NCBI GenBank assembly: GCA_026683435.1
Contig: GCA_026683435.1_4866.1
Length of the DNA: 64,000 nucleotides
DNA from: a phage
Reading direction: 5' to 3' (one strand)
Positions 2,664-17,464 of the stretch are shown in pieces; the first letter of the stretch is position 1; every line of letters begins with the position of its first letter. A model generated the notes under the pieces. That model worked only from the letters and a program-made list of their open reading frames with translations, ran no database searches and was not told where the DNA came from. The position numbers and the translations under genes are program-made.

Positions 2664-3983
2664 CTATAGCGGTGGATACCAAGGGACCGGGGCGGTTTTG
2701 CTATATGGACTGTAGACCATATAGCCGCCTTTGCTTGGGTCGTAATAGATGAAATAGTTACAGTAATTCGAGTAGAGGCTCGTCATTTGTTTGGATTGGT
2801 ATCCGTTACGGTATAGTCCCTGGTAAGTAGTAGCTGATGTCGTGGTGGTGTAAGCAGTGTGGTACAGTACCCGACGCCGGTTAGCAATACTTTCTTGGAA
2901 CATCTCTTCGGTCGGAAACGCGTGTTGCATCAGCCGTCGAATACTCCCGGTACAGTATCGAGTGCCATACGGGGAACCCGTTAAATCATCCGCCGTTTCA
3001 GGCGATTCTGCCCGAGTCAACACGTACTCGTTTTGATACAACGTGACGCTCATCGAATTTGGGCTGGTTTCCCGGAAACTCATGTAACGCGCATAACGTT
3101 CGACGTCCTCTTCCTGCGCCAAATAGGCCACGTTATTTTTCGGACCAAAGTGCAAGAAGAACGGACGACGGAGATTACCCATATCCTCAGGTGGCGTCAA
3201 CTTCACGCAGTAATTGTACTCCCCACGCATATCAGGGTCTAAGCCTGGGTTGTTATTGCGTGTAGCGACATACCCATAGAGGTCATACGGGTTATCAGTA
3301 GCAGCATTACCGATAGTGAACGGGATGCCCGACCATGCCGACAGCGCCGCGATGAACTGGGTCATGTACGAGTTACTGTTTAGTCGCAGCGGGGTACCCA
3401 TTGGAATATTGATTATCTGTTGGGTGTACATGCTCCAGTCGAGTCGATAGACCGTGCTGTAAACATCCATGGGTTCCCAAGCCCCGGTTTCGGTGGTGTG
3501 GTACAAGTCGGCAAAGCTGGGCTCTTCACGAATAAAGCTAATAGGAATGTGACCCGTGAATGCGGGGTTATCCGATTTAATCGCCACCGTCCGATCGCCC
3601 GTTGCCACAGTGATCATTGCAAACTGGCTGTCGGGATACGTTAAATCGTCAGCAGTAAGCACCAACCCACAAGCTGCGGAAATCCGGTCGATGATGTCGC
3701 GGTAGGACGTCGCCCGATAAGGTACTTTAACCGGTACGCTGACGCCTTTAAAATACTGCGAAAGGTTTAAGCGGTCGTAGTAGATGTCCATCTTACCGCT
3801 GTAACCACCACCCTGTAATCCGTTTACCACTATACGGCTGTTGCGGCCATCGCGCAAGGCATTGGTTAAAGGACCTTGTAATAACGCCACGTTTGTTGCG
3901 TTGAGTGGTTTCTTGAGCTGCGGGTTATCACGATTAATCTGATCCCAAACCAGCTGCATGACAGGTTTGTTATAGTTGATCAT
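2664..3983 (-). CDS. N-module paralog family (A-type), 439 aa; putative tail-fibre/receptor-binding-like protein
   Basis: N-terminus MINYNKPVMQLVWDQINRDNP...GRNSRIVVNGLQGGGYSGKMDIYYDRLNLSQYF...CGLVLTADDL matches the family module; ATG at 3983. Confidence 0.6.
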   Translation of the reverse strand: MINYNKPVMQLVWDQINRDNPQLKKPLNATNVALLQGPLTNALRDGRNSRIVVNGLQGGGYSGKMDIYYDRLNLSQYFKGVSVPVKVPYRATSYRDIIDRISAACGLVLTADDLTYPDSQFAMITVATGDRTVAIKSDNPAFTGHIPISFIREEPSFADLYHTTETGAWEPMDVYSTVYRLDWSMYTQQIINIPMGTPLRLNSNSYMTQFIAALSAWSGIPFTIGNAATDNPYDLYGYVATRNNNPGLDPDMRGEYNYCVKLTPPEDMGNLRRPFFLHFGPKNNVAYLAQEEDVERYARYMSFRETSPNSMSVTLYQNEYVLTRAESPETADDLTGSPYGTRYCTGSIRRLMQHAFPTEEMFQESIANRRRVLYHTAYTTTTSATTYQGLYRNGYQSKQMTSLYSNYCNYFIYYDPSKGGYMVYSPYSKTAPVPWYPPL

Positions 3984-4034: not shown

Positions 4035-4637
4035 TTATGGTGAAGTACGCTATCCCTTTAACTCCAGCTGATTCGACCTGCGTGTTGGGGATTATCCCGC
4101 TGAATGAGCCGACACAACAGCTCAAGTGCAGTGGATGAGTAAAACCCCATATTAGCTCCTGTTAGCTAAGAACCAATTCGATAACGTGGACTACCGACGC
4201 GCTACTGTTCGAAGAGATGTACGATGGTGAGTCTGGATAAGTGGCGCGATAATACCACGTGTTGGCGTTGCCAGCGATTTGATAGGCGCGTCTACCGACT
4301 GTACACTGCTATCAGATAACCAAACACCGTATAAATCACGTAGAGCTGGGAGAAGATCCCGCACGGTCTTGGCCGTTTGTGGTACGTAGACGCGCGGAGC
4401 TATTTAAAATAGATCTGATAATGTTAAACGGTCGTAATAAACCGTGCACTCCCCAGAGAAACCTTTACCGGGTTTACCTACCAACGTAATTACCGTGTTA
4501 CGACCATTCTTAGTGGTCTCGGCAGGAATACCCCTCACCCCAATCGAATCAGCGCTGATTCTTCCTGCGAGTTCAGGGTTATCCCTTACAACCTGTTGGC
4601 AGAGCAGTTCCAGTTCGGGTGCGCTATACAATCCCAT
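4035..4637 (-). pseudogene. decayed array copy: intact 77-codon N-module fragment (4404..4637) followed by non-coding remnant
   Basis: Fragment MGLYSAPELELLCQQVVRDNP...VYYDRLTLSDLF is about 74% identical by eye (57/77) to the N-terminus of the 6550..7968 product; no ORF in 3984..4403; 4130..4400 keeps residual nucleotide similarity to the 3' end of gene 4649..5548. Confidence 0.55.
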
Positions 4638-4648
4638 GAAGTCTCCTG

Positions 4649-5548
4649 TTAAGGCAGAACGAGTTCAAGTACCGCAATAGAACGTATTGTATCGGTTTCG
4701 TATCTACCGTTCGACGGCGACTCTGGGTAAGGTGGACGGCTGTACCACTGATTGTAAATGTCAGACATAGTCGCAAAGAGTGCAGATTGCGGGGCAGTAG
4801 TCGAATCGGTTGGACCGACCGGAAGGTCGTCAAAGCGCGGCAACTGCCCACTGTAGTTGTACAGGCGCGCGAAAGTGTTAAACCACTCACCGTCGAGATA
4901 CAGCTCGGTCTTACCGCTTCTAACGTTAGTCGTCCAGAATCTGTAGTCGAACAAATACGGCAAACGCACCACGTATTCGTAACCGTTCTTCGCCACCGTG
5001 CGGCGTTGGTTACGTGCAGTGGCCCAGCTCGGTACAAATCCATTGCCATCCTGGCCGTACATCAGCCCCTGGTTATAAATGAACTGCGGGCTAGCGTATA
5101 TTATCGCGTTATCGGACATAAACAGAATACGGTTTTTGTAAATGAACTTATGCCAGGCACCAACGGCGGAACTGAACATATTCACCACGAGGCTGTTCAG
5201 TTCCGTGTTAGTGAATAACTCTGTTGGCGTTACTGTTCCAAAGTATCCAGCGTGCCAGTCGCCGTATAACAGCTTCTGGGGGCCAGGCCCGGTGTCTAAA
5301 AAGAACCCTTGGGCGGTAGGGGTGTTGAAGACACGCTCACCGTCTTTAACCGCAGCTATCCAATAACGGTAAGTGGTGTTGTTTTCCACAGCGTTGTCTT
5401 CGTACGATGTAGCGTCACCCGGAAGGGTTGCCAGAGGCGTTCCCGGTGCATTAACATCAATGGTGGCGTTGCCCGGCGTCTTGCGATAGATTTCGATGCT
5501 ATCGAGCGCCTGTGGCTTCCGTTGTGCAAAGTTTAATGTAATAGGCAT
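4649..5548 (-). CDS. array paralog B'-type (beta-sandwich-like N-terminus + shared core domain)
   Basis: Track ORF 4649..5584 starts at TTG; first ATG at 5548 (MPITLNF...) 2 nt after the upstream stop. Motifs IEIYRK...TYRYWIAAVKD, GPGPQKLL...GYFGTV, C-terminal ELVLP shared with 7982..8905. Confidence 0.6.
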   Translation of the reverse strand: MPITLNFAQRKPQALDSIEIYRKTPGNATIDVNAPGTPLATLPGDATSYEDNAVENNTTYRYWIAAVKDGERVFNTPTAQGFFLDTGPGPQKLLYGDWHAGYFGTVTPTELFTNTELNSLVVNMFSSAVGAWHKFIYKNRILFMSDNAIIYASPQFIYNQGLMYGQDGNGFVPSWATARNQRRTVAKNGYEYVVRLPYLFDYRFWTTNVRSGKTELYLDGEWFNTFARLYNYSGQLPRFDDLPVGPTDSTTAPQSALFATMSDIYNQWYSRPPYPESPSNGRYETDTIRSIAVLELVLP

Positions 5549-5550
5549 GA

Positions 5551-6537
5551 TTAATCCTCGATAAGCTCGATTACTGGAATCCAAACACCGCCCGCGGTCG
5601 CACCAGCGACATGTTGTATACGCTGGAGGTTATCCACGGTATCAGTGGAACCCGCCGCCGTTCCGCGCGTCAGCCCCAACTTACGGTCTGGGTCAAACTC
5701 CTGACAATGCGCCCCGCGGCCACTCACCGCCGATCCACTTCCGAATATGCTGGTGTTCGACCACTTTATCAGGGACATCACTTTTTTCTTTTCTGGGAAC
5801 CAGCTACTTATCCCATAGATGAGTCGGTTGTATTCGCTATCGGCAGTATACGGTGACGCGTCATGGAGTTTACCGTCCCACTGTGCATCGAGTGTCATGA
5901 CCGGGCTTTCACTGTCGAGTGTTAAACCGCGCAGCAGGCGCATCCGATAGCGGTCACCCAACCACGTAAACTCCCCAGCCTGGTCAACGTCAGGTAAATC
6001 ACCATGACCGCCTTCCGGACCAGGTCCCGCCACACCGTACAGCAAACCCGCGTTATAAATCGCATCACGGCTATACAGCGTGTTGCCGTTCACACGAAGA
6101 CCACTAAACAGATACAGAATTTTACCGTCTAGCTGGAACTTCATCAAGCCCGGCTTAACAGTTGGGTCGTATCCAGAAAGGGCCACAAACCCTGGCGGAT
6201 AATCAGCCGCGCTAGGCAATTCACCGTACGCCACATACCCGTAATACGCAAAGCGGTCATCACCGTACTGTGGAGCCACGATGCCGATACCGCGACGGTT
6301 CTGAATTAGAATTGATTTCTGCGGACTGAACAGTGTCCGACTTCCCACTGTCACGGTGGTCATGTAGTAATACGTTGTCCCCAGTATCGCTGTTCGGTCA
6401 GTATACTCAGTTTCCCCGTTAGTGAACGTTGCCAGGGGTTCAGGTAATGCCGTACGCACCAGAGGTTTGGTGTCGCGGTACAGCTTCACGGTCGAAGCCC
6501 CAGGGTTATTGTTCGTCCAACGAATTGTAAAAGCCAT
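5551..6537 (-). CDS. array paralog B-type
   Basis: 328 aa; MAFTIRWTNNNPG...VKLYRD...TYYYMTTVT; core motifs AIYNAGLLYGVAGPGPEGGHG, RMRLLRG; paralog of 8915..9913. Confidence 0.6.
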   Translation of the reverse strand: MAFTIRWTNNNPGASTVKLYRDTKPLVRTALPEPLATFTNGETEYTDRTAILGTTYYYMTTVTVGSRTLFSPQKSILIQNRRGIGIVAPQYGDDRFAYYGYVAYGELPSAADYPPGFVALSGYDPTVKPGLMKFQLDGKILYLFSGLRVNGNTLYSRDAIYNAGLLYGVAGPGPEGGHGDLPDVDQAGEFTWLGDRYRMRLLRGLTLDSESPVMTLDAQWDGKLHDASPYTADSEYNRLIYGISSWFPEKKKVMSLIKWSNTSIFGSGSAVSGRGAHCQEFDPDRKLGLTRGTAAGSTDTVDNLQRIQHVAGATAGGVWIPVIELIED

Positions 6538-6549
6538 TGTCGTTACCTC

Positions 6550-7968
6550 TTATTGGAATCCATCCAACTCACCGTTAGTATCGCCCAGAGTAATTTTTGA
6601 AGGTTGGGCGATTTGGTCAGTCGTGAGAATAATCGGTCTAATCTTAACGCTAGCCATGCCTGTTACCGCGACGGAATATGCACGTTCATCATTGTCCGTC
6701 GTGGCAAGCAGAGGACGTGGATTCGCTGCAGCGGAGGTTTCCGTAATAGGCACCACACGAAGCGATTCGTTTTGGTCGATGTCTGTCAGAGTAACCACGG
6801 ACGGTGCCCATGTCAGTTCTGCACCTTCGTCAATCAACGGCACAGGTTCATTGGCAACATCAAACATCTCCAGGATTGGCCAAAAGCCAGAAGAGGTGTG
6901 GATGTATGTGTATGAACGATAGCTCCCACTGATAGACTGGTAATACGCTTGGTCGGCACCGAACTGGTGTCGTAACCACACGTAATCCAGGAAGTTAGCA
7001 TCAGTCGTGCTAAGAGTTCCCCATTCCCCATATACGTTCACCGACCCCAATTTGCTGGTCAGTGACAGGATAGAGGTGATTGACGGCGGTTTACTCCAAT
7101 CAGGCGCGGCGGCGTTCTCGGTGTAATACGGGATAGACATTCTGAAATAATGCGTTCCTTCATCATCCCGTTTTACCATGTATTTCAACTGTTCAACATC
7201 GACAGGTGTGTAAGTCGACTTCGGGCGAGGTCCTGCGTCTCCGGAATCAAATATTGCACCCTTGTTGTACAGGTCTGCCCAGGTAACGTTGCAAATCGCA
7301 CGGGTCGGAACAAACACTACCGCCCCATTCAGAAAGAATTTGAGCCACTTGATAGCGTAGCGGTTAGGCCAGTTGGTGCCGTTATAGAGGGCATACACCA
7401 TTTCATCAGATGTGAATAACTCTTCCGCGCTTACCAACCCAAAGAATCCGTATAACTCATTACCGGCCATTAATCCTTTTGGCCCAGGACCCGATTTCGG
7501 ATACATCGCAATCGGTTCGTAAACATAGGTCATCTTGCATGACCCGGTATAACACAAGGAGTTAGCGTGCGCCGTCAGAGTTACAGTTTCCGGCGTAGCG
7601 TATTTCATTAATGCAACGTTTGGACTGGTGATGTCACTCGCGGTTAAGTTCAACCCGTTCAATTCATTGAACGCCGGTAACGCTTCCGCATGGGTTTGTG
7701 CGCTACGTGGAATACTCACCATATTCGGGCCAGACTTGAACAGACTGGCCAGATTCAACCGGTCGTAATATACCGTTATTTCCCCAGCAAATCCTTTACC
7801 GGGTTTTCCTACCAACGTAATCTGTGTGTTTCGTCCGTTAACGTTTTTCGCAACAGGAACACCCCTGACCCCAATGGAGTCAGCGGTGATTTTTCCTGCT
7901 AAACCGGGATTGTCACGCACAATTTGTTGGCAGAGCAGTTCCATTGAAGGTTCTGTATACAACCCCAT
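6550..7968 (-). CDS. array paralog A-type (N-module + core domain), 472 aa
   Basis: N-module MGLYTEPSMELLCQQIVRDNP...GRNTQITLVGKPGKGFAGEITVYYDRLNLASLF; core GPGPKGLMAGNELYGFFG; C-terminal NGELDGFQ shared with 9925..11337. Confidence 0.6.
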   Translation of the reverse strand: MGLYTEPSMELLCQQIVRDNPGLAGKITADSIGVRGVPVAKNVNGRNTQITLVGKPGKGFAGEITVYYDRLNLASLFKSGPNMVSIPRSAQTHAEALPAFNELNGLNLTASDITSPNVALMKYATPETVTLTAHANSLCYTGSCKMTYVYEPIAMYPKSGPGPKGLMAGNELYGFFGLVSAEELFTSDEMVYALYNGTNWPNRYAIKWLKFFLNGAVVFVPTRAICNVTWADLYNKGAIFDSGDAGPRPKSTYTPVDVEQLKYMVKRDDEGTHYFRMSIPYYTENAAAPDWSKPPSITSILSLTSKLGSVNVYGEWGTLSTTDANFLDYVWLRHQFGADQAYYQSISGSYRSYTYIHTSSGFWPILEMFDVANEPVPLIDEGAELTWAPSVVTLTDIDQNESLRVVPITETSAAANPRPLLATTDNDERAYSVAVTGMASVKIRPIILTTDQIAQPSKITLGDTNGELDGFQ

Positions 7969-7981
7969 GGTATTTACTCCA

Positions 7982-8905
7982 TTACGGTAAGACTAATTCA
8001 AAAGCAAAGAACATCGTGGCCGAGTTCCCGACACCTGAGGTGTTACTAATCCCCATAGGCGCATAACCGTACGCATAAGCGAAAATGTTGTTGCTCCATA
8101 AAGGAGCTAATGCAGCAGCACCTGTTTCGTTAGGCTGGTAAGTTGAACCTTGCGCCGGTATTGAATCGATGGCACCAAGACCAATAGGCGGGAACTGTGA
8201 ACCGACAGGATACAAACGGCCCATTGTGTTTCGCCATTCACCGTTGTTGTAATCCTGTCCTGAGAGTGCCGCGTCGTACGGGACTGCGTAAGGTAACCGG
8301 ATACGGTACGTACGACCATCCTTCGTGACCTTACAATCTTGTTTGGTCGCCGTGGCCCCCAGCGGAACAATACTTCCGTCATCATCGGTCCCGTACATCA
8401 TGCCGTACTGATACGCCATTTGTACCGAGTTGCTTTTCGAATGCATCGTCGCTGGGAAGAAGACAATTCGCCCACGGAAAATAAACTTGTGCCATTCCTG
8501 AGGGTCGTAAGTAAACATGTTTCCCTGCTGCGCGGTTAACATGAGTTTTAACTCGGCAGTATTAAAGAACTCGGTATTAGATACCGTACCGAAATAGCCT
8601 GACGCCCAATCGCCACGCAAAATAGTTTGTGGCCCCGGTCCAGTGTCCGGATAGAACCCTTGCGTAATCGGATTGCCGATAAGTCGTTCATTATCTTTCA
8701 CAGCAGCTACCCAGTAACGATAAGTTGTATTCTTCGTCAGGGTATCGATATTATCTACGAACTCTACCGCGCTACCGGATAAGGTGGCGTGGGGTGTACC
8801 TGGGTTGTAAACGTCGATTGTTGCGTTCCATCCTTCCTTGCGGTAGATTTCAATCGCGGTAAGACCTTTGCTGGCTTGGGACGGCCAGCTTAACCGTATA
8901 GTCAT
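7982..8905 (-). CDS. array paralog B'-type
   Basis: 307 aa; IEIYRKEGWNATIDVYNPGTP...TYRYWVAAVKD...GPGPQTILRGDWASGYFGTV; C-terminal FELVLP. Confidence 0.6.
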   Translation of the reverse strand: MTIRLSWPSQASKGLTAIEIYRKEGWNATIDVYNPGTPHATLSGSAVEFVDNIDTLTKNTTYRYWVAAVKDNERLIGNPITQGFYPDTGPGPQTILRGDWASGYFGTVSNTEFFNTAELKLMLTAQQGNMFTYDPQEWHKFIFRGRIVFFPATMHSKSNSVQMAYQYGMMYGTDDDGSIVPLGATATKQDCKVTKDGRTYRIRLPYAVPYDAALSGQDYNNGEWRNTMGRLYPVGSQFPPIGLGAIDSIPAQGSTYQPNETGAAALAPLWSNNIFAYAYGYAPMGISNTSGVGNSATMFFAFELVLP

Positions 8906-8914
8906 GACTGCCCC

Positions 8915-9913
8915 TTACTCGACCAGTTCAAAGATAGGGTAGTAGCGCCCTTTCGTGGTGGGTGATAAATAGTTTATACGCTGAATCGTGGATACGGGTG
9001 TTCCACCGGCATTGTTAAAAATACCACGATGGAGCACACGGTCTTCCGCGGTATCGTGTTCCATACAGAGAACACCACCGCCGAAATACTGTGCCAAGGT
9101 TCCCAAAGTACCCTGTCCCAGATAAGTATAACCGATTGTTGCCCAGTTAGCCCAACGCTGTTTCTTCGGCACCTCGTTAACCATCGTGTAAAGTAAATCG
9201 TTATACTCACACGGGTTGGTTAGAGAAGCGATTTCATCATGGGTTTTCCCATTATAGTCAGCTACGAAAGGATACGCAGGAGGCTCGCTAGACGTCGTCA
9301 GGCCGCGAGGAAGACGCATAATGTACGTATCCCCTTTGTGGACTATCTTAGCGTCTTGTGGAGTGGCCGGTAGCGTTCCATGGCCGTTCTCTGGGCCAGC
9401 ATCGCCCGTACCATAGACTAAACCAGCTTGATAGAGGGAAGCCCAGTCCACAGGCGTATTCGGGAACTGCGACGTGTTAGATAGCATGTAATAGATCTTC
9501 CCGTTTCGGGTAAATTTATACAACGCCACACGATCGGTTAGTAGGTTAGGGAACATCGCCAAAAATGCAGGTGGCATTTGCGACGGAAGCCACTGTTCGT
9601 CGTAAGGAACCGCACCCATAAACCCTAAACGGTCGTCACCGTTTAGAATAGTCATTGGGCCTATCCCGCGTTTTACCTCAACAGTATATTTCTGGCTAGA
9701 CGATGCCACTGTTTTACCGTTGGCGGTTACCGTCAGAAGGTAATAATAGGTTGCGCCTGGTGTGGCGGTGGTATCACGCCATTCTGTCTCGCCATTTGAG
9801 AGCGTTGCAATCGGTTCAGGCAAAGCGCCTGGTGTGATATCTTTAACATCACGGTAGATTTTTACTACCGTAGGGATTACGTTTGGATTTTTCCAACGCA
9901 AAGTAAAAGACAT
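8915..9913 (-). CDS. array paralog B-type
   Basis: 332 aa; MSFTLRWKNPN...VKIYRD...TYYYLLTVT; LYQAGLVYGTGDAGPENGHG; C-terminal PIFELVE. Confidence 0.6.
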   Translation of the reverse strand: MSFTLRWKNPNVIPTVVKIYRDVKDITPGALPEPIATLSNGETEWRDTTATPGATYYYLLTVTANGKTVASSSQKYTVEVKRGIGPMTILNGDDRLGFMGAVPYDEQWLPSQMPPAFLAMFPNLLTDRVALYKFTRNGKIYYMLSNTSQFPNTPVDWASLYQAGLVYGTGDAGPENGHGTLPATPQDAKIVHKGDTYIMRLPRGLTTSSEPPAYPFVADYNGKTHDEIASLTNPCEYNDLLYTMVNEVPKKQRWANWATIGYTYLGQGTLGTLAQYFGGGVLCMEHDTAEDRVLHRGIFNNAGGTPVSTIQRINYLSPTTKGRYYPIFELVE

Positions 9914-9924
9914 GGATGATACCT

Positions 9925-11337
9925 CTACTTAAAGCCGTCCAGTTCACCGTTAAGAGACGTTAACGTTGTCTTGTCGGGGGGAGTATACATTTCAGCGGTA
10001 GCCGCAATAGGTTGGAAGTCGACTGTCTTCGGCAGCATTAATGCAGGCGGATGCAGTGCGAAACTGTTTTCTGAAGTAACAACTACCGGTTCGAAATCGG
10101 TAGTATCTGGATTACCGAGCACCAACGGCTTGAGACTAAACGTGTTTTCTGCGGACACGCTGCACGGTTGGAGGCTGTAATCTACCGCGCCGTGGATATC
10201 TTCTAAGCCCAAGGTAACCGTGGACTTATCCACCAACTCTAGCACCGGGAACCAGTAGTAGTTGCCTGCGCTCGATGATTTTTCTAAGTTTGTCCAACTG
10301 GCTCCAGACAACGTCGCCATGCGATGATAGGCGACGTTGGTCTTCAGTGTATCTTTCAATAAACAGAACAGCGTCCAGTAACTGTTAATCGGTTTGTCCC
10401 ACGTTCCATTATACAGAAAGTTGAACATCTCAAACTCACTACCTGCTAACTCAGCGGCAGTTGGGGTGCCGCTGACGTATGGGTCTTTCCCGGCACTAGG
10501 TAGACGAACACGGAAGTAAAACCTTTTGTTGTCTGCGCCTGTAAAGCTAATGATGCGTCCCTGGTTAACGGGCGTCGCCGCAGGGTATTTACCATTATCA
10601 TCTGTTCCGTAAACGAGTCCGTTTGTATATAATGTATTCCAGGAGATGGAGCTAGCGACAGGACTGATCGGGAGGTAAATAACCCTACCCTGGTAAAAGA
10701 ACTTGTACCAACCTTCGGCACCAGAATGTACCGGTGGTAACGCACCGGCCGATATAGTGGCATTAAGAAGTTGAGAGTGTGTAAACAACTCTGCAATTGT
10801 GGTTGTTCCGAAATAACCCGCAATAGTGTTACCTTGCAGCAACGTTTTAGGGCCAGGTCCAGAATCGGGGTAAATTGCACCGCTCGGGACGGTATAACGT
10901 ATCGTTAAGCTGCCTGTAAACGCAGGGCAATTACCTGAGATATTTAATTTCAGCGTCTGCGGCGAAGCGCTCGGTTTAGGTAGACTTGCGTCAGGTAACT
11001 GCAAATCAGAAGCAACTAATGTAAGCCCCAATGCGTCGTTTATTGCAGGTAGCGCGTCTCGTACCGTTAAGACTGTATCTTTGATAGCCACAGTCGGCAC
11101 AAAATTAAATAAAGTGGCCAGGTTAATCCGGTCGTAGTACACGGTAACATTACCTTGTACACCTGTCCCTGGATACCCGGTGAAAACAGCTTTGGTGTTA
11201 CGTTGGTTTAACGTAACTGAAGTTGGGCCGCTGGTTAAAGCAGCGATAGCCGGCGTCAGCTTAACAACTAAATCAGGGTTATCCCGATTGACTTGGTCGT
11301 ATACAAGCAGTGCCGACTCCTTCGAGTAAAATAGCAT
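9925..11337 (-). CDS. array paralog A-type, 470 aa
   Basis: ATG at 11337; N-module ...NQRNTKAVFTGYPGTGVQGNVTVYYDRINLATLF; core DSGPGPKTLLQGNTIAGYFG, LYTNGLVYGTDDNG; C-terminal NGELDGFK. Confidence 0.6.
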   Translation of the reverse strand: MLFYSKESALLVYDQVNRDNPDLVVKLTPAIAALTSGPTSVTLNQRNTKAVFTGYPGTGVQGNVTVYYDRINLATLFNFVPTVAIKDTVLTVRDALPAINDALGLTLVASDLQLPDASLPKPSASPQTLKLNISGNCPAFTGSLTIRYTVPSGAIYPDSGPGPKTLLQGNTIAGYFGTTTIAELFTHSQLLNATISAGALPPVHSGAEGWYKFFYQGRVIYLPISPVASSISWNTLYTNGLVYGTDDNGKYPAATPVNQGRIISFTGADNKRFYFRVRLPSAGKDPYVSGTPTAAELAGSEFEMFNFLYNGTWDKPINSYWTLFCLLKDTLKTNVAYHRMATLSGASWTNLEKSSSAGNYYWFPVLELVDKSTVTLGLEDIHGAVDYSLQPCSVSAENTFSLKPLVLGNPDTTDFEPVVVTSENSFALHPPALMLPKTVDFQPIAATAEMYTPPDKTTLTSLNGELDGFK

Positions 11338-11352
11338 AGGGACTCCGCATCG

Positions 11353-11382
11353 CCAAAAGAGGGGGGGCTCCGAAGAGCCCCT
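11353..11382 (-). terminator. hairpin terminator after gene 11387..12214
   Basis: ggggctc-cgaa-gagcccc, G7 run in 5' arm; T-rich on minus strand. Confidence 0.55.
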
Positions 11383-11386
11383 ACAC

Positions 11387-12214
11387 TTAGCTGTTATAGT
11401 GGTAGTACGCCACGCCTTTCACGCCTTCCTCATCGATACCCGTTTGGACAACCACGCGGTCGTACGATTTGTTAGCGAACTGAGCGGTGGATGTCGGCAC
11501 ATCCTGAACGGTGTTACTGTTCAGTGGCCCCGCGTAGTTCGGAATACCCAGGTCATCCAACACCTTACGCAAACCAGCCCACTGCGGTAGGCCAGAAGCA
11601 TCTACTGTCAGTAGGTTTTTATACGCGGTAAAGTCAATACCGTACGTCAACAAATCAATACACTTCTTACCGAGAGACGGTGAAATAGGCTCTTGAATCG
11701 CATTCAAGACATCCGATTTCACCGAAGTGTCTAGTACCGGTAAACCACGGTTATAACGCAACGTCGCAGAACCGATATAAGCCGGAGATGTCGATAGCGC
11801 TACGATGTTCTGTGTATTGGTGTAATTTGGGGTATTGGGACCCGCCAGTGGGAGGTTATAGATATCGATTGCAGAGAAGTTTACTCCGTAAGTATCCAAG
11901 AGCACCGAAAAGGCTGAGTGGAGGTTGGGAGCGTCAAACGTGACGAACTGCGCCTGGACAGAAGGACCCCACGGCAATAACCGCGCTAAGTTCACACGGT
12001 CGTAGTAAACGGTGATTGCGTCTCGAAATCCAGAACCCTGAATACCGCGCAAGCGTGCCGACGTATTGCGGTTGTTGGAAGCTGCATTAACGGGAACCTG
12101 TGTCACTTTCTCCACGTAGCAGTTTGCCGGCGACGCTTTAATAGGTAGGTTTGGGTTATCCCGGTTAATGAGGTCAAAGACCAACTCGTTTGACGGCTTA
12201 GCATAGTTGATCAT
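11387..12214 (-). CDS. N-module paralog, 275 aa, C-terminal YYHYNS (C-type end motif)
   Basis: Track start 12217 is TTG; ATG at 12214, 4 nt after upstream stop. MINYAKPSNELVFDLINRDNP...NNRNTSARLRGIQGSGFRDAITVYYDRVNLARLL. Confidence 0.6.
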   Translation of the reverse strand: MINYAKPSNELVFDLINRDNPNLPIKASPANCYVEKVTQVPVNAASNNRNTSARLRGIQGSGFRDAITVYYDRVNLARLLPWGPSVQAQFVTFDAPNLHSAFSVLLDTYGVNFSAIDIYNLPLAGPNTPNYTNTQNIVALSTSPAYIGSATLRYNRGLPVLDTSVKSDVLNAIQEPISPSLGKKCIDLLTYGIDFTAYKNLLTVDASGLPQWAGLRKVLDDLGIPNYAGPLNSNTVQDVPTSTAQFANKSYDRVVVQTGIDEEGVKGVAYYHYNS

Positions 12215-12217
12215 CAA

Positions 12218-13105
12218 TTATACCTCGCTTGGATCGTCCAGATCGTTGAACTGGAGATACAACGTTCCGACGATGGTGGTACAGGTAACAGGCAGTTTCA
12301 ACACCAGCGCATACTTGTACTTCGCGTTTGTCGGCATTGCAACAGGGTCATTCAGACCAACGCTGATAACCTCCGCGCCCGCCAAACCGTAGGAAGCGGA
12401 AGTGGTCGCTACCCATGCAGTACCCGTGATATCTTTCAGCAGGTTAACCATATCCGTCAACGGCTGTCCAGACAGAATACCCGGCTTGTATGCCAGCAGA
12501 GCATCTCGGTACTTAGTGAAGTTGTACGGGTAGGAATAGACCTCTGCAATGACCGCAGTAACATTTTCGGAACCCATCTGACCGTTCGGGTATTTCAGAC
12601 CGGTCAGGACGTTAGTAGTGACCGCAGAGACTAACGACTCATCGCCTTTCACGACTTTAAATGTCGCCTGTCCAACCCAACCGATAGACTCTGGATGTGC
12701 AACAACACGCACAGTACCTTCGGTCTTATCACCGTTCCATTCGATATCTGCGTCCTGCAGGTCAGCTTCTTCCAGAACAAAACCGTAACGTTGGTTCAGT
12801 CCAGGAATGGCCGCATACAAGGTTTCGTTGGATGGGCCGATCGCCAACGTGTCACCAATCAACACTAACAAGTCTTCGACTTTCATGCGGTTGTAGAAGA
12901 CATTTTTCTTACCCGACCAGGTAGAGCCCGTTACCCCATCTGCCGTAATTTTAATTTGCGTGTTACGGTTAGTCAGCGTTTCCTTTTCCGTACCACGGAT
13001 GTCCTTTGGCGTGGACCAGATGATGTCAGTCATCTTAACAGCAAGCGAGTTCTGTGCGTTCACTGCTGCCAACAGGACGTCTTTAGAAGGTTGATAAATA
13101 GCCAT
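12218..13105 (-). CDS. N-module paralog C-type, 295 aa
   Basis: MAIYQPSKD...TNRNTQIKITADGVTGSTWSGKKNVFYNRMKVEDLL...RYGFVLEEADL; C-terminal LYLQFNDLDDPSEV. Confidence 0.6.
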   Translation of the reverse strand: MAIYQPSKDVLLAAVNAQNSLAVKMTDIIWSTPKDIRGTEKETLTNRNTQIKITADGVTGSTWSGKKNVFYNRMKVEDLLVLIGDTLAIGPSNETLYAAIPGLNQRYGFVLEEADLQDADIEWNGDKTEGTVRVVAHPESIGWVGQATFKVVKGDESLVSAVTTNVLTGLKYPNGQMGSENVTAVIAEVYSYPYNFTKYRDALLAYKPGILSGQPLTDMVNLLKDITGTAWVATTSASYGLAGAEVISVGLNDPVAMPTNAKYKYALVLKLPVTCTTIVGTLYLQFNDLDDPSEV

Positions 13106-13115
13106 TCGCTAATTC

Positions 13116-13955
13116 CTAGTTGTTGTAGTGCAACATACACTCGCCGATTACTTTCGGGTCGTTCTGAATGCCGGTAATCAGCAATACGTTATCGTACGCT
13201 TTATTGGCGGTCGCCAACTCACTCGTTTTGTAGCGGGTAATTGTGCAGTTCGTCGGATCAAACGACGGTACCCCACGTGCGACCAATGTGGCCATCAGAT
13301 TGGACGTGTAACCCAAATCAAAGTTACTTCCTACGTCCATTCGCCCGTTCTTAAACGAGGCCATAACCTGCACTTCATCGGTAAAGTCTTCCCCGTACGT
13401 CAAGAAGCCCATGTATTTCTTACCAGTGCTTGCTGCTGCAGGGTGGTTCAAAGCCAACAAGATGTCGTTTACCACGAGGTCTTCGAGGCTATTCTTACCC
13501 CGGATAGACATAAAGGTGATGCTGCCAGTGTATTGGATACAGCTAGCGTTAATACGCATCGTGTTGTTTACGTTCAGATAAACGTATTGTTCTGGGATAT
13601 CATCTGCAACCAGGTTTAATCCATAACGACCGTTCAGGTTCTGCGCAAACGCAGTACGTTTCGACTCCACGTTCAACCAACCGTAGGCATTCGGTGCAGT
13701 TACCTGAGGTGTCATGTTCTTAAATAAGTCGTTCAGCGACAAGCGCTTATAACGGAACGTTTGAGGACCGATATAACCACGACCTTGACGACCACGAATG
13801 ATAATCTCGGTGTTGGCACCGCTTGCTGTCGGTGTGATTGCTTTCGGCGTACCGATGATAGCATTGTCTAAACCCATCGGTAGAACAGCATCCGGGTTTT
13901 CGGCATTAATCGCATCGTACAGATATTGTCGCTGAGACAGACTATATAAAGCCAT
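13116..13955 (-). CDS. N-module paralog C-type, 279 aa
   Basis: Track start 13973 is TTG; ATG at 13955 with GAGGAGG 4 nt upstream (MALYSLSQRQ...). Module ...GRQGRGYIGPQTFRYKRLSLNDLF...RYGLNLVADDI; C-terminal MLHYNN. Confidence 0.65.
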   Translation of the reverse strand: MALYSLSQRQYLYDAINAENPDAVLPMGLDNAIIGTPKAITPTASGANTEIIIRGRQGRGYIGPQTFRYKRLSLNDLFKNMTPQVTAPNAYGWLNVESKRTAFAQNLNGRYGLNLVADDIPEQYVYLNVNNTMRINASCIQYTGSITFMSIRGKNSLEDLVVNDILLALNHPAAASTGKKYMGFLTYGEDFTDEVQVMASFKNGRMDVGSNFDLGYTSNLMATLVARGVPSFDPTNCTITRYKTSELATANKAYDNVLLITGIQNDPKVIGECMLHYNN

Positions 13956-13970
13956 AATAGCCTCCTCGGC

Positions 13971-14012
13971 CAAAAAAGAAAGGAGTAGCCAGGAGGAGGA
14001 TTTCCTCCTCCC
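13971..14012 (-). terminator. hairpin terminator after gene 14025..14936
   Basis: ggaggagg-attt-cctcctcc; minus-strand T-run (plus caaaaaagaaagg). Confidence 0.6.
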
Positions 14013-14024
14013 AGCGAGGCCTAA

Positions 14025-14936
14025 TTAGGCATTAAAGTGCAGGTACATGATACCCTGGAAGTTGGTGCACAGAGTGTCATCCAGCTGCAGCAGCAGAACC
14101 TGGTTGTAAGCAGTGTTTGCACCTTCAACCGGTTTCTTAGGTTCGTCGCCTGAAGCAGTGCCATCGTCAGTAGTAGAACCAACGTACAACACGTTAGCGC
14201 CTTTCAGGTTATAATCCGCAGGCTTATCAGATGCAACCCACAGTTCCGGCACAACTTTATTCAGCTCAACCGGGAATGCAGAGTCGCCAGCGATAACACC
14301 TTTCGCCTGTACTTTCAGGAATGCTGCGATTGCTGTGCAGTCTACACCGTAAGAGTAGATGTAACCCTGACCCTTCGCAGCGCTTGGACCATCTGGGTAA
14401 ACCAGGCCGTCGAGCTTGGTTTGTGTTACCACCAGACTCAGACGTTCACCAACCTGAGGCTTAGCACCGATTTTAACCGGGATGCTGCCCAGATAAGCGT
14501 AGCAGTCTTCTTTGAAAGTAATGACGTGGTCAACCGGTGCTGGGTCCGGATCGTTCGGGTTAGTCAGCGGCGGGTTGGTATTTTCCGGAATAGCCGCCGG
14601 AACGATATCGTCTTCGGTCAGCTTCAATCCGTATTGGGTGTTCAGGGTCGTCAGCAGGTCGGTGGTGGTTTTCGGCAGTTTAACGTCGAGGTATGCGGTT
14701 ACATTACGGAACAGCGCACTGCCTTCCAGGCGATTATAAGTCACGTCCTGAGTACCGATGTACCCGGAGTTCTTTTTCGCAGTCAGGGTCATGCTGGTAT
14801 TGCGATCGGCACCTTCATCGCTAATAGGGGTCGGTGTGCCGAGCGTTATTTTAGAAAGTTCCAGTTCTGCGTCTGGGTTTTTCTCATTAATAAAATCCAG
14901 AACCAGCTTATCGGACGTTTTGTTTAAAGGTTTCAT
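14025..14936 (-). CDS. N-module paralog C-type, 303 aa
   Basis: MKPLNKTSDKLVLDFINEKNP...ADRNTSMTLTAKKNSGYIGTQDVTYNRLEGSALF...QYGLKLTEDDIV; C-terminal MYLHFNA. Confidence 0.6.
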   Translation of the reverse strand: MKPLNKTSDKLVLDFINEKNPDAELELSKITLGTPTPISDEGADRNTSMTLTAKKNSGYIGTQDVTYNRLEGSALFRNVTAYLDVKLPKTTTDLLTTLNTQYGLKLTEDDIVPAAIPENTNPPLTNPNDPDPAPVDHVITFKEDCYAYLGSIPVKIGAKPQVGERLSLVVTQTKLDGLVYPDGPSAAKGQGYIYSYGVDCTAIAAFLKVQAKGVIAGDSAFPVELNKVVPELWVASDKPADYNLKGANVLYVGSTTDDGTASGDEPKKPVEGANTAYNQVLLLQLDDTLCTNFQGIMYLHFNA

Positions 14937-14957
14937 TCTTACTTCCTTTACTCAGGA

Positions 14958-15803
14958 TTAATCAGGGTCGTTGTAATGCAAATACAAACGCCCGCCAAAA
15001 TTCAGACAGTACAACGACAGCTCCACAATCAGCACGTTGTCGACTGCTGGGTTGGTTGGTAATTCCGCTTTGTTACGCCCGTTATAGACGACGACGGCTT
15101 CACGAAGGTTAAAGTCGATAGGGTTGCGGTACGTTGTCCAGTTATCACCGGTGACCGTTTTGAGAATCTGTGCCAGACGTTCTGTGGTTATCGCAGCACC
15201 TAGTCGTTGAAATTCCTCCGCGAAATTATCAAAGCGCCAGGGATACGAATAAACTGCACCTTGACCGACCTTGATGTTAAAATACGGATACTCGTAAGGC
15301 ATCACTGTTAACGGTTCGAAGTTTGCAGGAAGCAACGCATCGCCTGGTAACAGCTGTACCTGTTGTTGCCCTATCCAACCTAAAGAAGTGGGCGTGGCAA
15401 TCAGATCCACACGCCATGTCTTCCTGTCGATTTCGGTATTCACCACATCTGCAGGTTTAAGGCTGAGACCGTAATACTGGTTAATTAACCCGACCACGTC
15501 ATGCATCTGGTAAACAGCATCGAGACGTGCAGGAACACGTAGAGGTTGAATCCCGTCCGGATCGGTAAACATGTCTGCGAAGTCAACACGATCGTAGTAC
15601 ACGGTAGTGGCACCGATAGCATTAGCCGTGGCCAATGCCTGAATGCGCACCATCGCGTTGTGACCGTTAGCTTTTGCCAGGTCTTCGTCAGACGTCGGAA
15701 TCGCAGGGACACCAAAAACAACATCTTCGACTTTTAAATCGAGATTGTTTTCGACGTTAACTTCCGCGATAATAATCTTTTCAGCTGTGGCTAAAAGTGG
15801 CAT
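14958..15803 (-). CDS. N-module paralog C-type, 281 aa
   Basis: ...TTVYYDRVDFADMF...YYGLSLKPADVV; C-terminal LYLHYNDPD. Confidence 0.6.
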   Translation of the reverse strand: MPLLATAEKIIIAEVNVENNLDLKVEDVVFGVPAIPTSDEDLAKANGHNAMVRIQALATANAIGATTVYYDRVDFADMFTDPDGIQPLRVPARLDAVYQMHDVVGLINQYYGLSLKPADVVNTEIDRKTWRVDLIATPTSLGWIGQQQVQLLPGDALLPANFEPLTVMPYEYPYFNIKVGQGAVYSYPWRFDNFAEEFQRLGAAITTERLAQILKTVTGDNWTTYRNPIDFNLREAVVVYNGRNKAELPTNPAVDNVLIVELSLYCLNFGGRLYLHYNDPD

Positions 15804-15813
15804 GTCAAAATCC

Positions 15814-16656
15814 TTATATCGGGAGATAATGAAGGATGAGATTACCGGCGTAGTTGCTGTCCGCAGCTAGCTTGATAATCGCCACACGCTGATAATCGGG
15901 GTTGTAACTATCGTTCGGTGTGACTGAAGTTATCCCCATAAATCGTGCACCTTGGAGTGCAATTTGTTCAGGTTGCGCATTCGCCCCCGTCACATATGCA
16001 AACTTTAATGGCACCACTTCATTCAACAACTCAACATCCGCTGCAGTGATTGCACGGTTGTAAACCCAATCGGTGGTGAACTGTTTTTGCAGTTCAGTCC
16101 AATCGTAACCATACGCCACATACTCAGCCTGCGGTTTACTAGCAACCACGAACGGCGCGATAATTGCGCTGAGGTCAACATCCGTCACCACATCCGCCAA
16201 GTTCGGGAAGAACTTCGCAAAGCGTAAACGGAAACCACCTTGCCAGGCCAAGCAACCGGGCTTAATAGTCACATCGATTAACCAGCTTTCTCCCAAATCT
16301 TTTACTGACTGGTCAACGATATCGTCGGCAACTAAAGACAAGCCGTATTTCGCATTCAGAAACGGCAACAACTCAGAGAGTTTATTTACCGGGTCGGCAA
16401 CGACTACCGGTATTACGTTCCTGAACAGAATTTCCATTTCGATACGGTCGTATTCGAGCGTAACGTTGCCTTTGTAGCCCTTGCCGTTCAACCCGTATAA
16501 GAGCACACGCGTATTCCGGTCAGCGCCAGGCGTTTGGACAGACTCAGGGAAGCCAGTTGCAACCTGCTCCCATGTGAGTGGATTGGCCGTTAATCCGTTC
16601 TGTCGGTTAATAGCATCTAACAACATCTCTTTCGAGGGCTTATCGTAAATAGACAC
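15814..16656 (-). CDS. N-module paralog C-type, 280 aa
   Basis: MSIYDKPSKEMLLDAINRQNG...ADRNTRVLLYGLNGKGYKGNVTLEYDRIEMEILF...KYGLSLVADDIV; C-terminal LILHYLPI. Confidence 0.6.
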   Translation of the reverse strand: MSIYDKPSKEMLLDAINRQNGLTANPLTWEQVATGFPESVQTPGADRNTRVLLYGLNGKGYKGNVTLEYDRIEMEILFRNVIPVVVADPVNKLSELLPFLNAKYGLSLVADDIVDQSVKDLGESWLIDVTIKPGCLAWQGGFRLRFAKFFPNLADVVTDVDLSAIIAPFVVASKPQAEYVAYGYDWTELQKQFTTDWVYNRAITAADVELLNEVVPLKFAYVTGANAQPEQIALQGARFMGITSVTPNDSYNPDYQRVAIIKLAADSNYAGNLILHYLPI

Positions 16657-16666
16657 CTATACCCTC

Positions 16667-17464
16667 CTAGTTGTTAAAGTGTAGGTTGAGGCTGCCCTGG
16701 AAGTTCGTACATTTATCGGTCAGTTGCACTGACACGACTTTCGCGAACGCCGTATTTGCTCCCGGCAAGTCTGCAGGTACGCCGTCGAATACGACAGTGG
16801 CACCACGCAGGTTATACGGGGATGGGGTATCTTCAGCTACCCAAATCTCAGGAACACATTTGTTGAGTTCGATTGCCAACGCCGTGTCATCTACCTCGAT
16901 ACCGACCGCTAAGAGGCTCAGGAAACGAGAGATGTGGCTACAATCGATGTCACGCGAATAGATATACGCCTGACCCAACTGGATGTCCTGGTGATCCGGG
17001 TACAGAAGACCGCTCAACTCTGTATTGGTTACTACTTCTGCCAGAGGTGTAGCAGGTTTCAGCTCGATGACCGCTTGACTTCGCCACTCGTGGGAAGTTT
17101 CAACAGCAACGACTGTGTGCGTCTGTCCATCAATGGGGTTATCTTCGATATCCTCAGGTAAGATAGACAGATTAAAACGCTCGTTAATCGCCGCGAGTAA
17201 GTCGTGCGTGGTTTGCACGTCCTCGTCTCCAAAGGCAACATCGCCTGTAAGGTAGTCCTCTAATGGGCGACGATGGTAGTCCACAATCACTTGCGTACCT
17301 TCATCACCGCGCATCTTCGAGGTAAGGACTACCTCCGAATCACGACCGTCTACTGACACAACCTCCGGCAGTCCGATATCAACATCGTCAAAGGTAAGCG
17401 GTGGGCTTATCTTATTCTCTTCGTTGATGAGTTTTAGCAGATTCTGTTTTGAAGTAAAAGACAT
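16667..17464 (-). CDS. N-module paralog C-type (first gene of array), 265 aa
   Basis: MSFTSKQNLLKLINEENK...; C-terminal SLNLHFNN; divergent N-module. Confidence 0.55.
   Translation of the reverse strand: MSFTSKQNLLKLINEENKISPPLTFDDVDIGLPEVVSVDGRDSEVVLTSKMRGDEGTQVIVDYHRRPLEDYLTGDVAFGDEDVQTTHDLLAAINERFNLSILPEDIEDNPIDGQTHTVVAVETSHEWRSQAVIELKPATPLAEVVTNTELSGLLYPDHQDIQLGQAYIYSRDIDCSHISRFLSLLAVGIEVDDTALAIELNKCVPEIWVAEDTPSPYNLRGATVVFDGVPADLPGANTAFAKVVSVQLTDKCTNFQGSLNLHFNN

Follow-up and report, generated by a model that had tools for sequence, protein, structure and literature searches.

A shared core domain with a tentatively C-type-lectin-like fold in the A-B-B' gene triplets of an SPN3US-like jumbo phage

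The proteins of three families encoded side by side in a phage contig, here called A, B and B', contain a common core domain of about 225 residues, and in this study its homology, architecture, distribution, predicted fold and probable role were analyzed. The contig (GCA_026683435.1_4866.1 of NCBI GenBank assembly GCA_026683435.1; 64,000 nucleotides (nt), hereafter the window) is identical at 95-97% of nucleotides to the Seoulvirus genomes (SPN3US, Proteus phage 7, SEGD1 and the SPFM phages) over the full length of 4600-11400, and by this measure its source is an SPN3US-like jumbo phage, that is, of the giant Salmonella phage type. Two A-B-B' triplets, orthologs of SPN3US gp145-150, are present together with the wreck of a third, and all of the relevant genes lie on the minus strand. 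The first-pass annotation had noticed short motif blocks common to A, B and B' and read them as a sign of domain shuffling. According to the alignments reported here, these motifs are the conserved skeleton of one homologous, discrete and mobile domain, with PHROG 1062 covering A, B and B'. The interval to which that annotation had been attached (5551-7968) holds only B2 and A2, and the peptides quoted in it come from A1 (9925-11337) and B'2 (4649-5548).

Family alignments of 16 members from the window, SPN3US, CR5, phiEaH2, pSal-SNUABM-04, PhiEaH1 and Phobos were compared with hhalign. A aligned with B at a probability of 99.8% and E 1.1e-27 (A 158-283 to B 81-205), A with B' at 99.9% and E 1.8e-33 (A 142-310 to B' 71-233), and B with B' at 100% and E 9.9e-45. 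These local profile alignments span 119-229 columns and do not extend past the N-terminal two thirds of the core; what precedes the terminal ELV strand varies too much to be aligned locally. BLASTP among the window proteins gave 80 bits for A1-B'1 (E 5e-20), 77 bits for A1-B'2 and 43.5 bits for A1-B1 (E 5.5e-8); with a database of only 11 window proteins, the bit scores and not the E-values are the portable figures. The phrog_1062 profile matched B1 (1-331), B2 (1-327, E 1.5e-50) and B'2 (1-298) end to end, with full-length E-values of 1e-50 to 3e-58 on B and B', and it matched A1 at residues 152-376 (E 1e-32) and A2 at 148-376 (E 1e-21) over the same profile positions as in B and B'. The core of A is slightly nearer to that of B' than to that of B (hhalign E 2e-33 vs 1e-27; mean core distance 0.87 vs 0.91). 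A Pfam scan of 121 core members at E <= 1 returned no family for the core.

In the alignment of these 121 sequences, the positions conserved in at least 80% of members (A1 numbering) are G160, P161, G162, P163, G169, G174, Y175, F176, G177, W210, K212, G217, P223, Y237, G240, G244, G249, P252, Q259, R278, E301, E367 and L368. The shared motifs stand in common columns, where conservation is highest, so that all of the blocks first noticed by eye are present in one statistically supported alignment, as hhalign, BLASTP and phrog_1062 agree. Their spelling is less uniform than first described. GPGP followed by G-[YF]-F-G is found in A1 and B' but is degenerate in B (GIGP...GFMG in B1, GIGI...AYYG in B2), while LYxxGLxYG with the following R-[LM]-[PL] occupies shared columns in all three families but is degenerate in A2, where LYNKGAIFD replaces the former and RMSIP stands for R-L-P. 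Because several motifs have decayed in B or A2 and some are short stretches rich in glycine, chance or convergent similarity of low-complexity Gly/Pro-rich sequence might be suspected in place of homology; we count this explanation as refuted and give it practically no credence, in view of profile-profile E-values of 1e-27 to 1e-45, of one PHROG family common to all three proteins, and of two independent models with a similar order of secondary structure over the well-predicted first ~125 core residues.

The core is combined with different partners in the three proteins. A1 (9925..11337, 470 amino acids (aa), gp145 ortholog, 98.9% aa identity to SPN3US) comprises a DUF7941 N-terminal module (10888-11337), the shared core (10210-10884, residues 152-376) and a C-terminal part (9928-10209) with a variable spacer and the end ...LNGELDGFK. 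A2 (6550..7968, 472 aa, gp148 ortholog) has its module at 7519-7968, its core at 6841-7515 and its spacer with the end ...TNGELDGFQ at 6553-6840; gp148 itself has 498 aa, and the difference is a 26-aa deletion at about 6713-6720 by which one repeat-like spacer unit is gone. Residues 1-150 of A1 and A2 match the N-terminal half of DUF7941 (PF25613) with 109.9 and 105.5 bits, respectively (cutoff 27), the match being confined to profile positions 1-153 of 276, with the C-terminal half absent. No match was found in a scan of B and B' for PF25613. Instead, B1 (8915..9913, 332 aa, gp146 ortholog), B'1 (7982..8905, 307 aa, gp147 ortholog), B2 (5551..6537, 328 aa, gp149 ortholog) and B'2 (4649..5548, 299 aa from the ATG at 5548, gp150 ortholog) begin with about 80 residues of FN3 (9674-9913, 8666-8905, 6298-6537 and 5315-5548, respectively), followed by the shared core (8918-9673, 7985-8665, 5554-6297 and 4652-5314), which in B2 was also matched by the core hidden Markov model (HMM). 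The start of B'2 is that annotated for SPN3US in RefSeq. Judged by these profile matches, B and B' are thus two-domain proteins too, which corrects the first-pass annotation. Its description of A as an N-module, a B'-like core and an extra C-terminal domain stands as to the order (DUF7941 at 1-150, core at 152-376, extension at 377-470), but for the extension the sequence predicts a variable spacer with a short conserved peptide at its end rather than an evident folded domain.

The FN3 assignment derives from a match of the B/B' profile to 3mpc. PDB sequence searches with A1, B1 and B'1 gave nothing meaningful and the B/B' profile found FN3 domains only, while the Pfam fn3 model matched 6 of the 121 members, weakly. 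FN3 domains of this kind are known from carbohydrate-active enzymes and phage fibres (3mpc, 5g56, 4u49); here the FN3 precedes a lectin-like core in a virion protein of about 300 aa. The FN3 part of B1 also matches virion proteins of the ~60-kb Bordetella phages CN1, MW2 and FP1 with E about 1e-8 and 36-40% identity; the annotation of one of these is 'F5/8 type C domain protein'. This similarity suggests that the FN3 module has been exchanged between unrelated phages. In A, residues 377-470 consist of the variable, repeat-like spacer and then a conserved terminal peptide, K-x-x-L-...-G-E-L-x-G-F. This GELxGF terminus was found in all 14 A proteins with a DUF7941 module and in none of the three A-type proteins without one, a distribution which suggests that it works together with the module, and possibly it is the peptide that docks in the head-to-tail model introduced below. 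A relation to the linker motif L-x-G-L-x-x-P of full-length DUF7941 paralogs was looked for and is retained merely as a hypothesis, resemblances such as that of TELSGLLYP to GELSGFN being too short to score.

Domain shuffling, as originally proposed, is seen in A-type genes without DUF7941, in the FN3 of B and B', and in tandem or fused cores of metagenomic proteins. A profile search covering 1.84 billion representatives returned hundreds of FN3+core proteins of about 300 aa, and 591 cluster representatives scored below 1e-30, a count to which FN3 arrays contribute; local core HMM and Pfam scans were then made on listed proteins. Jumbo-phage-like metagenomic contigs encode P0157 with two tandem cores, P0060 (L005 6123-8207) with three, P0053 with a Kelch propeller joined to four cores, and P0061 and P0099, each with LamG joined to three cores; among the other relatives, P0143 combines the core with Ig-like domains and P0171 combines cores with a glycine-rich domain. 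P0060 comes from a contig that also encodes an RNA-polymerase beta subunit in split form, a sign of another jumbo phage. A one-to-one mapping of the three cores of P0060 to A, B and B' was sought and no such mapping was found. The A-type genes of PhiEaH1 start directly at the core, without the DUF7941 module, and PhiPA3 gp238 is a core with a C-terminal extension, again without DUF7941, adjoining the FN3+core genes gp237 and gp236 (L003 5018-8932); an A-type core gene has therefore either gained or lost the module. These architectures show domain shuffling directly, and by them the core is an autonomous unit. Since PhiPA3 is a Pseudomonas phiKZ-like phage, its similar trio makes the cassette appear older than the SPN3US lineage.

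A core-only AlphaFold2 model of A1 152-376 was obtained with a predicted local distance difference test score of 86.2 and a predicted template modelling score of 0.87. The GYFG segment forms the first long strand and VLELV the last one. Three zones can be distinguished: a conserved one of ~135 residues, in which GPGP...GYFG makes up the N-terminal strand region; a hypervariable one of ~75 residues (~136-210), which differs between members in both sequence and length; and the final strand, where conservation returns. The remark on the position of ELV, at the end of B and B' and inside A, was accurate and is explained by the same layout, because ELV is the last core strand and the core reaches the C-terminus in B and B', whereas the extension follows in A. 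The check for a lectin or fibre-tip fold that had been proposed for the core gave only a tentative answer: the predicted fold is C-type-lectin-like. Neighbours in the structure search include PLA2R lectin domains, the FGE-like proteins OvoA, EgtB and PvdO, as well as CEL-I, Mincle, CD72 and many more, most of them non-catalytic lectin domains. The nearest lectin-fold neighbours share only 7-11% sequence identity with the core, which at ~225 aa is roughly twice the size of a canonical lectin domain, and a Foldseek search of the core against PDB gave no significant match, leaving the lectin similarity undetected. Known adhesin tips of C-type-lectin fold with which the core may be compared are the Legionella Lcl C-terminal domain (8q4e), the Bdellovibrio MAT fibre Bd2740 (8oks), Treponema TvpA (2y3c) and, by extension, Mtd. 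No diversity-generating retroelement was noticed in the window, though no search aimed at one was made. The Lcl C-terminal domain and Bd2740 are trimeric, calcium-independent C-type-lectin-like adhesin domains without Ca2+/carbohydrate motifs (EPN/QPD, WND) or canonical C-type lectin disulfides, and Bd2740 has been compared to the Bordetella phage receptor-binding protein Mtd (PMC11162425; PMC10769870).

The three genes also behave as one evolutionary unit. Their A-B-B' order is conserved, the cassette occurring once in CR5, twice in pSal-SNUABM-04 and PhiEaH1, and three times in phiEaH2, Phobos and SPN3US, and within the window triplets the genes are separated by gaps of 2-13 nt. Neighbour-joining trees built for each of the three families split into the same three clades, with only the two PhiEaH1 triplets placed differently. 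In every SPN3US-, EaH2-, Phobos- and pSal04-type phage the first triplet is of type I; type II comprises the second window triplet, SPN3US.2, SPN3US.3 and Phobos.2; and type III comprises CR5.1, EaH2.2, EaH2.3, pSal04.2 and Phobos.3. The window triplets are of types I and II only. This congruence of the trees implies that triplets were duplicated en bloc, that their members were not exchanged, and that they evolve as units.

Of the third triplet, a wreck remains at 4162..4637 (minus strand), where an N-terminal stub of A3 is joined to a C-terminal stub of B'3. The A3 stub starts with an ATG at 4637 and runs for 77 codons to an in-frame stop at 4404-4406; the junction lies at about 4257-4273, and the last ~37 codons of B'3 remain (...IELVLS, stop at 4162-4164). 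In a blastn comparison with SPN3US, L001 5792-8658, which is the third triplet, is missing from the window, with a 17-nt overlap at the junction. In phage JN03 one aligned piece spans the deletion junction, and in SPLA3, SPLA5c, EC001 and Lh1B the alignments are fragmented at the wreck. A 30-codon open reading frame (ORF) at 4058-4150 (minus strand; MGFYSSTALELLCRLIQRDNPQHAGRISWS*) resembles the first residues of A-type proteins and looks like a further degenerate remnant; the sequence around it is collinear with the SPN3US intergenic region between gp154 and gp153.

The wider locus is collinear with SPN3US at 96-98% nt identity, and the gene block is orthologous to SPN3US gp138-154, known as 'Paralog family B'. 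Orthology was assigned from the RefSeq SPN3US annotation and from the masses in the SPN3US virion table, which match gp145-153. The six triplet proteins are 90-99% identical in aa sequence to their SPN3US orthologs, and the A-type proteins 94-99% to gp145 and gp148. Upstream of A1 lie seven tandem full-length DUF7941 paralogs (11387..17464, minus strand, 265-303 aa; SPN3US gp138-144), of which the one at 11387-12217 matches PF25613 along its full length (positions 1-276 of 276, E 7.6e-87). The orthologs of gp141 and gp143 are the abundant Paralog family B members in the SPN3US proteome. Downstream of the triplets are two fusions of a DUF7941 N-module, both on the minus strand, namely a gp154-like protein (2664-3983, 439 aa) and a gp155-like protein (472-2649, 725 aa), which share a C-terminal domain (phrog_6409 in both). 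The gp155-like protein also contains a GP38-type tail-fibre adhesin domain (PF05268, GP38 adhesin, glycine-rich, T4 Gp38-type; E 5.9e-18); this T4-type adhesin occurs in that neighbour and not in A, B or B', and its presence in the DUF7941 locus supports a host-recognition theme for the locus.

DUF7941 fibre proteins of chimalliviruses include Goslar gp22/gp23 and the fusions gp86/gp92/gp161, phiKZ gp126/gp127, and SPN3US Paralog family B. The profile of the window DUF7941 paralogs matches phiKZ gp127 (PDB 9xqd_0, E 1.8e-25), which has been modelled in the outer baseplate, where it caps a protein band (PMC13250141). Goslar gp22 formed filaments in negative-stain electron microscopy, and the same preprint proposes a head-to-tail 'fibre cloud' bearing carbohydrate-binding domains (bioRxiv 10.64898/2026.04.21.720040). 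For DUF7941 proteins, head-to-tail filament formation and anchoring to the baseplate are known only from these gp22 micrographs and from the phiKZ gp127 density. The seven window paralogs are presumably filament subunits related to the N-terminal module of A. Like the Goslar fusions, A has a DUF7941 N-terminal globular module followed by a putative host-recognition domain, and it sits inside a DUF7941 paralog array; unlike full DUF7941 proteins, it has no C-terminal globular domain and carries the lectin-like core, the spacer and GELxGF instead, and B and B' differ from all DUF7941 fibre proteins in having no DUF7941 module at all.

We consider it rather probable that the mobile lectin-like domain in the A-B-B' cassettes provides host-surface recognition modules on the DUF7941 fibre network of the chimallivirus virion. 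A would plug into the network through its N-terminal module, and possibly also through its C-terminal peptide; B and B' would ride on A; the variable segment would be the ligand-binding face; and gain, loss and duplication of whole triplets would tune host range. In B, and above all in B', the amino acid changes relative to SPN3US are clustered in the variable segment (15 of 21 in B'1 and 24 of 30 in B'2), and this clustering, with the raised ratio of non-synonymous to synonymous substitution rates (dN/dS) in this segment, is suggestive of such a role. Some points weigh against it. The dN/dS values (1.02 in residues 206-299 vs 0.31 elsewhere for B'2; 0.22 in the variable segment vs 0.05 elsewhere for B'1) are single pairwise comparisons; and all Paralog family B members, including gp145-153, were found in tailless mutant particles of SPN3US and labelled Head (Thomas; PMC5105663, PMC5694885, PMC10052503), an assignment in conflict with a baseplate-anchored fibre. 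The triplet proteins could then be head components (decoration, head fibres or internal proteins), with the domain serving capsid architecture or a head-borne function. We regard this as unlikely: the DUF7941 profile match to phiKZ gp127 points to the outer baseplate, and modules of the FN3, lectin-like and GP38-adhesin kinds and a rapidly evolving loop region are what one typically finds in exposed binding proteins. Moreover, the self-assembling gp22 filaments of the Goslar preprint raise the prospect that filaments co-purify with heads, which could reconcile the two placements, and adhesion would be conceivable from the head surface too. In SPN3US, each of the nine triplet proteins was detected in the virion at an abundance roughly like that of the portal, with mass-adjusted spectral counts of 0.5-2.2 (0.93 for the portal, which has 12 copies). 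The head assignment stands against the phiKZ and Goslar structures, which put DUF7941 proteins at the peripheral baseplate; the SPN3US data go unmentioned in the Goslar preprint.

An enzymatic role is less likely still. B and B' are labelled 'glycosyl hydrolase' in MT679221 (Proteus phage 7) and OQ383623, and K212, Q259, R278, E301 and E367 are conserved in at least 93% of members, so that the core might be a glycosyl hydrolase or depolymerase, or a catalytic lectin fold of the FGE/EgtB kind in which the invariant K, Q, R and E are catalytic. In Pfam scans of the six proteins and, at E <= 1, of the 121 members, neither a glycosyl-hydrolase family nor that of any other enzyme was hit, no hydrolase fold is among the structural matches, which are mostly non-catalytic as noted, and the GenBank annotation states no basis; we therefore set the label aside as unsupported by sequence or fold searches. 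Returning to host recognition on the DUF7941 network, a more specific form of it, which we hold to be possible though doubtful, is that each cassette makes a heterotrimeric, pseudo-threefold lectin-like receptor-binding tip resembling the single-chain three-core metagenomic proteins, clipped to the 'fibre cloud' by the module and GELxGF of A, with three ancient cassette types (I, II and III) duplicated, swapped and deleted across chimalliviruses as host-range plug-ins.

Part of this picture was already available: homology among gp138-154 was implied by the PSI-BLAST grouping of 2016-17, and DUF7941 fusions were described in 2026. The literature searched gave neither the boundaries of the ~225-aa core nor its probable lectin fold, and no account of B and B' as FN3+core proteins, of the conserved and co-evolving three-gene cassette or of the A-specific terminal peptide was found there. 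The advance is incremental, a modest extension of known biology. A survey of 2021 reported no C-type-lectin-fold FGS domains in jumbo phages (PMC7824862), and a divergent lectin-fold family would refine that picture. Nine SPN3US members, six of them represented here, are built on one uncatalogued, probably lectin-like domain, which amounts to a large share of Paralog family B; within a triplet the DUF7941 filament-joining module is confined to A, and the three genes are inherited and diverge together. A block of anonymous 'virion structural proteins' may thus be turned into testable host-range candidates, and the 2026 'fibre cloud' model of DUF7941 proteins would gain concrete cargo proteins in biocontrol Salmonella and Erwinia phages.

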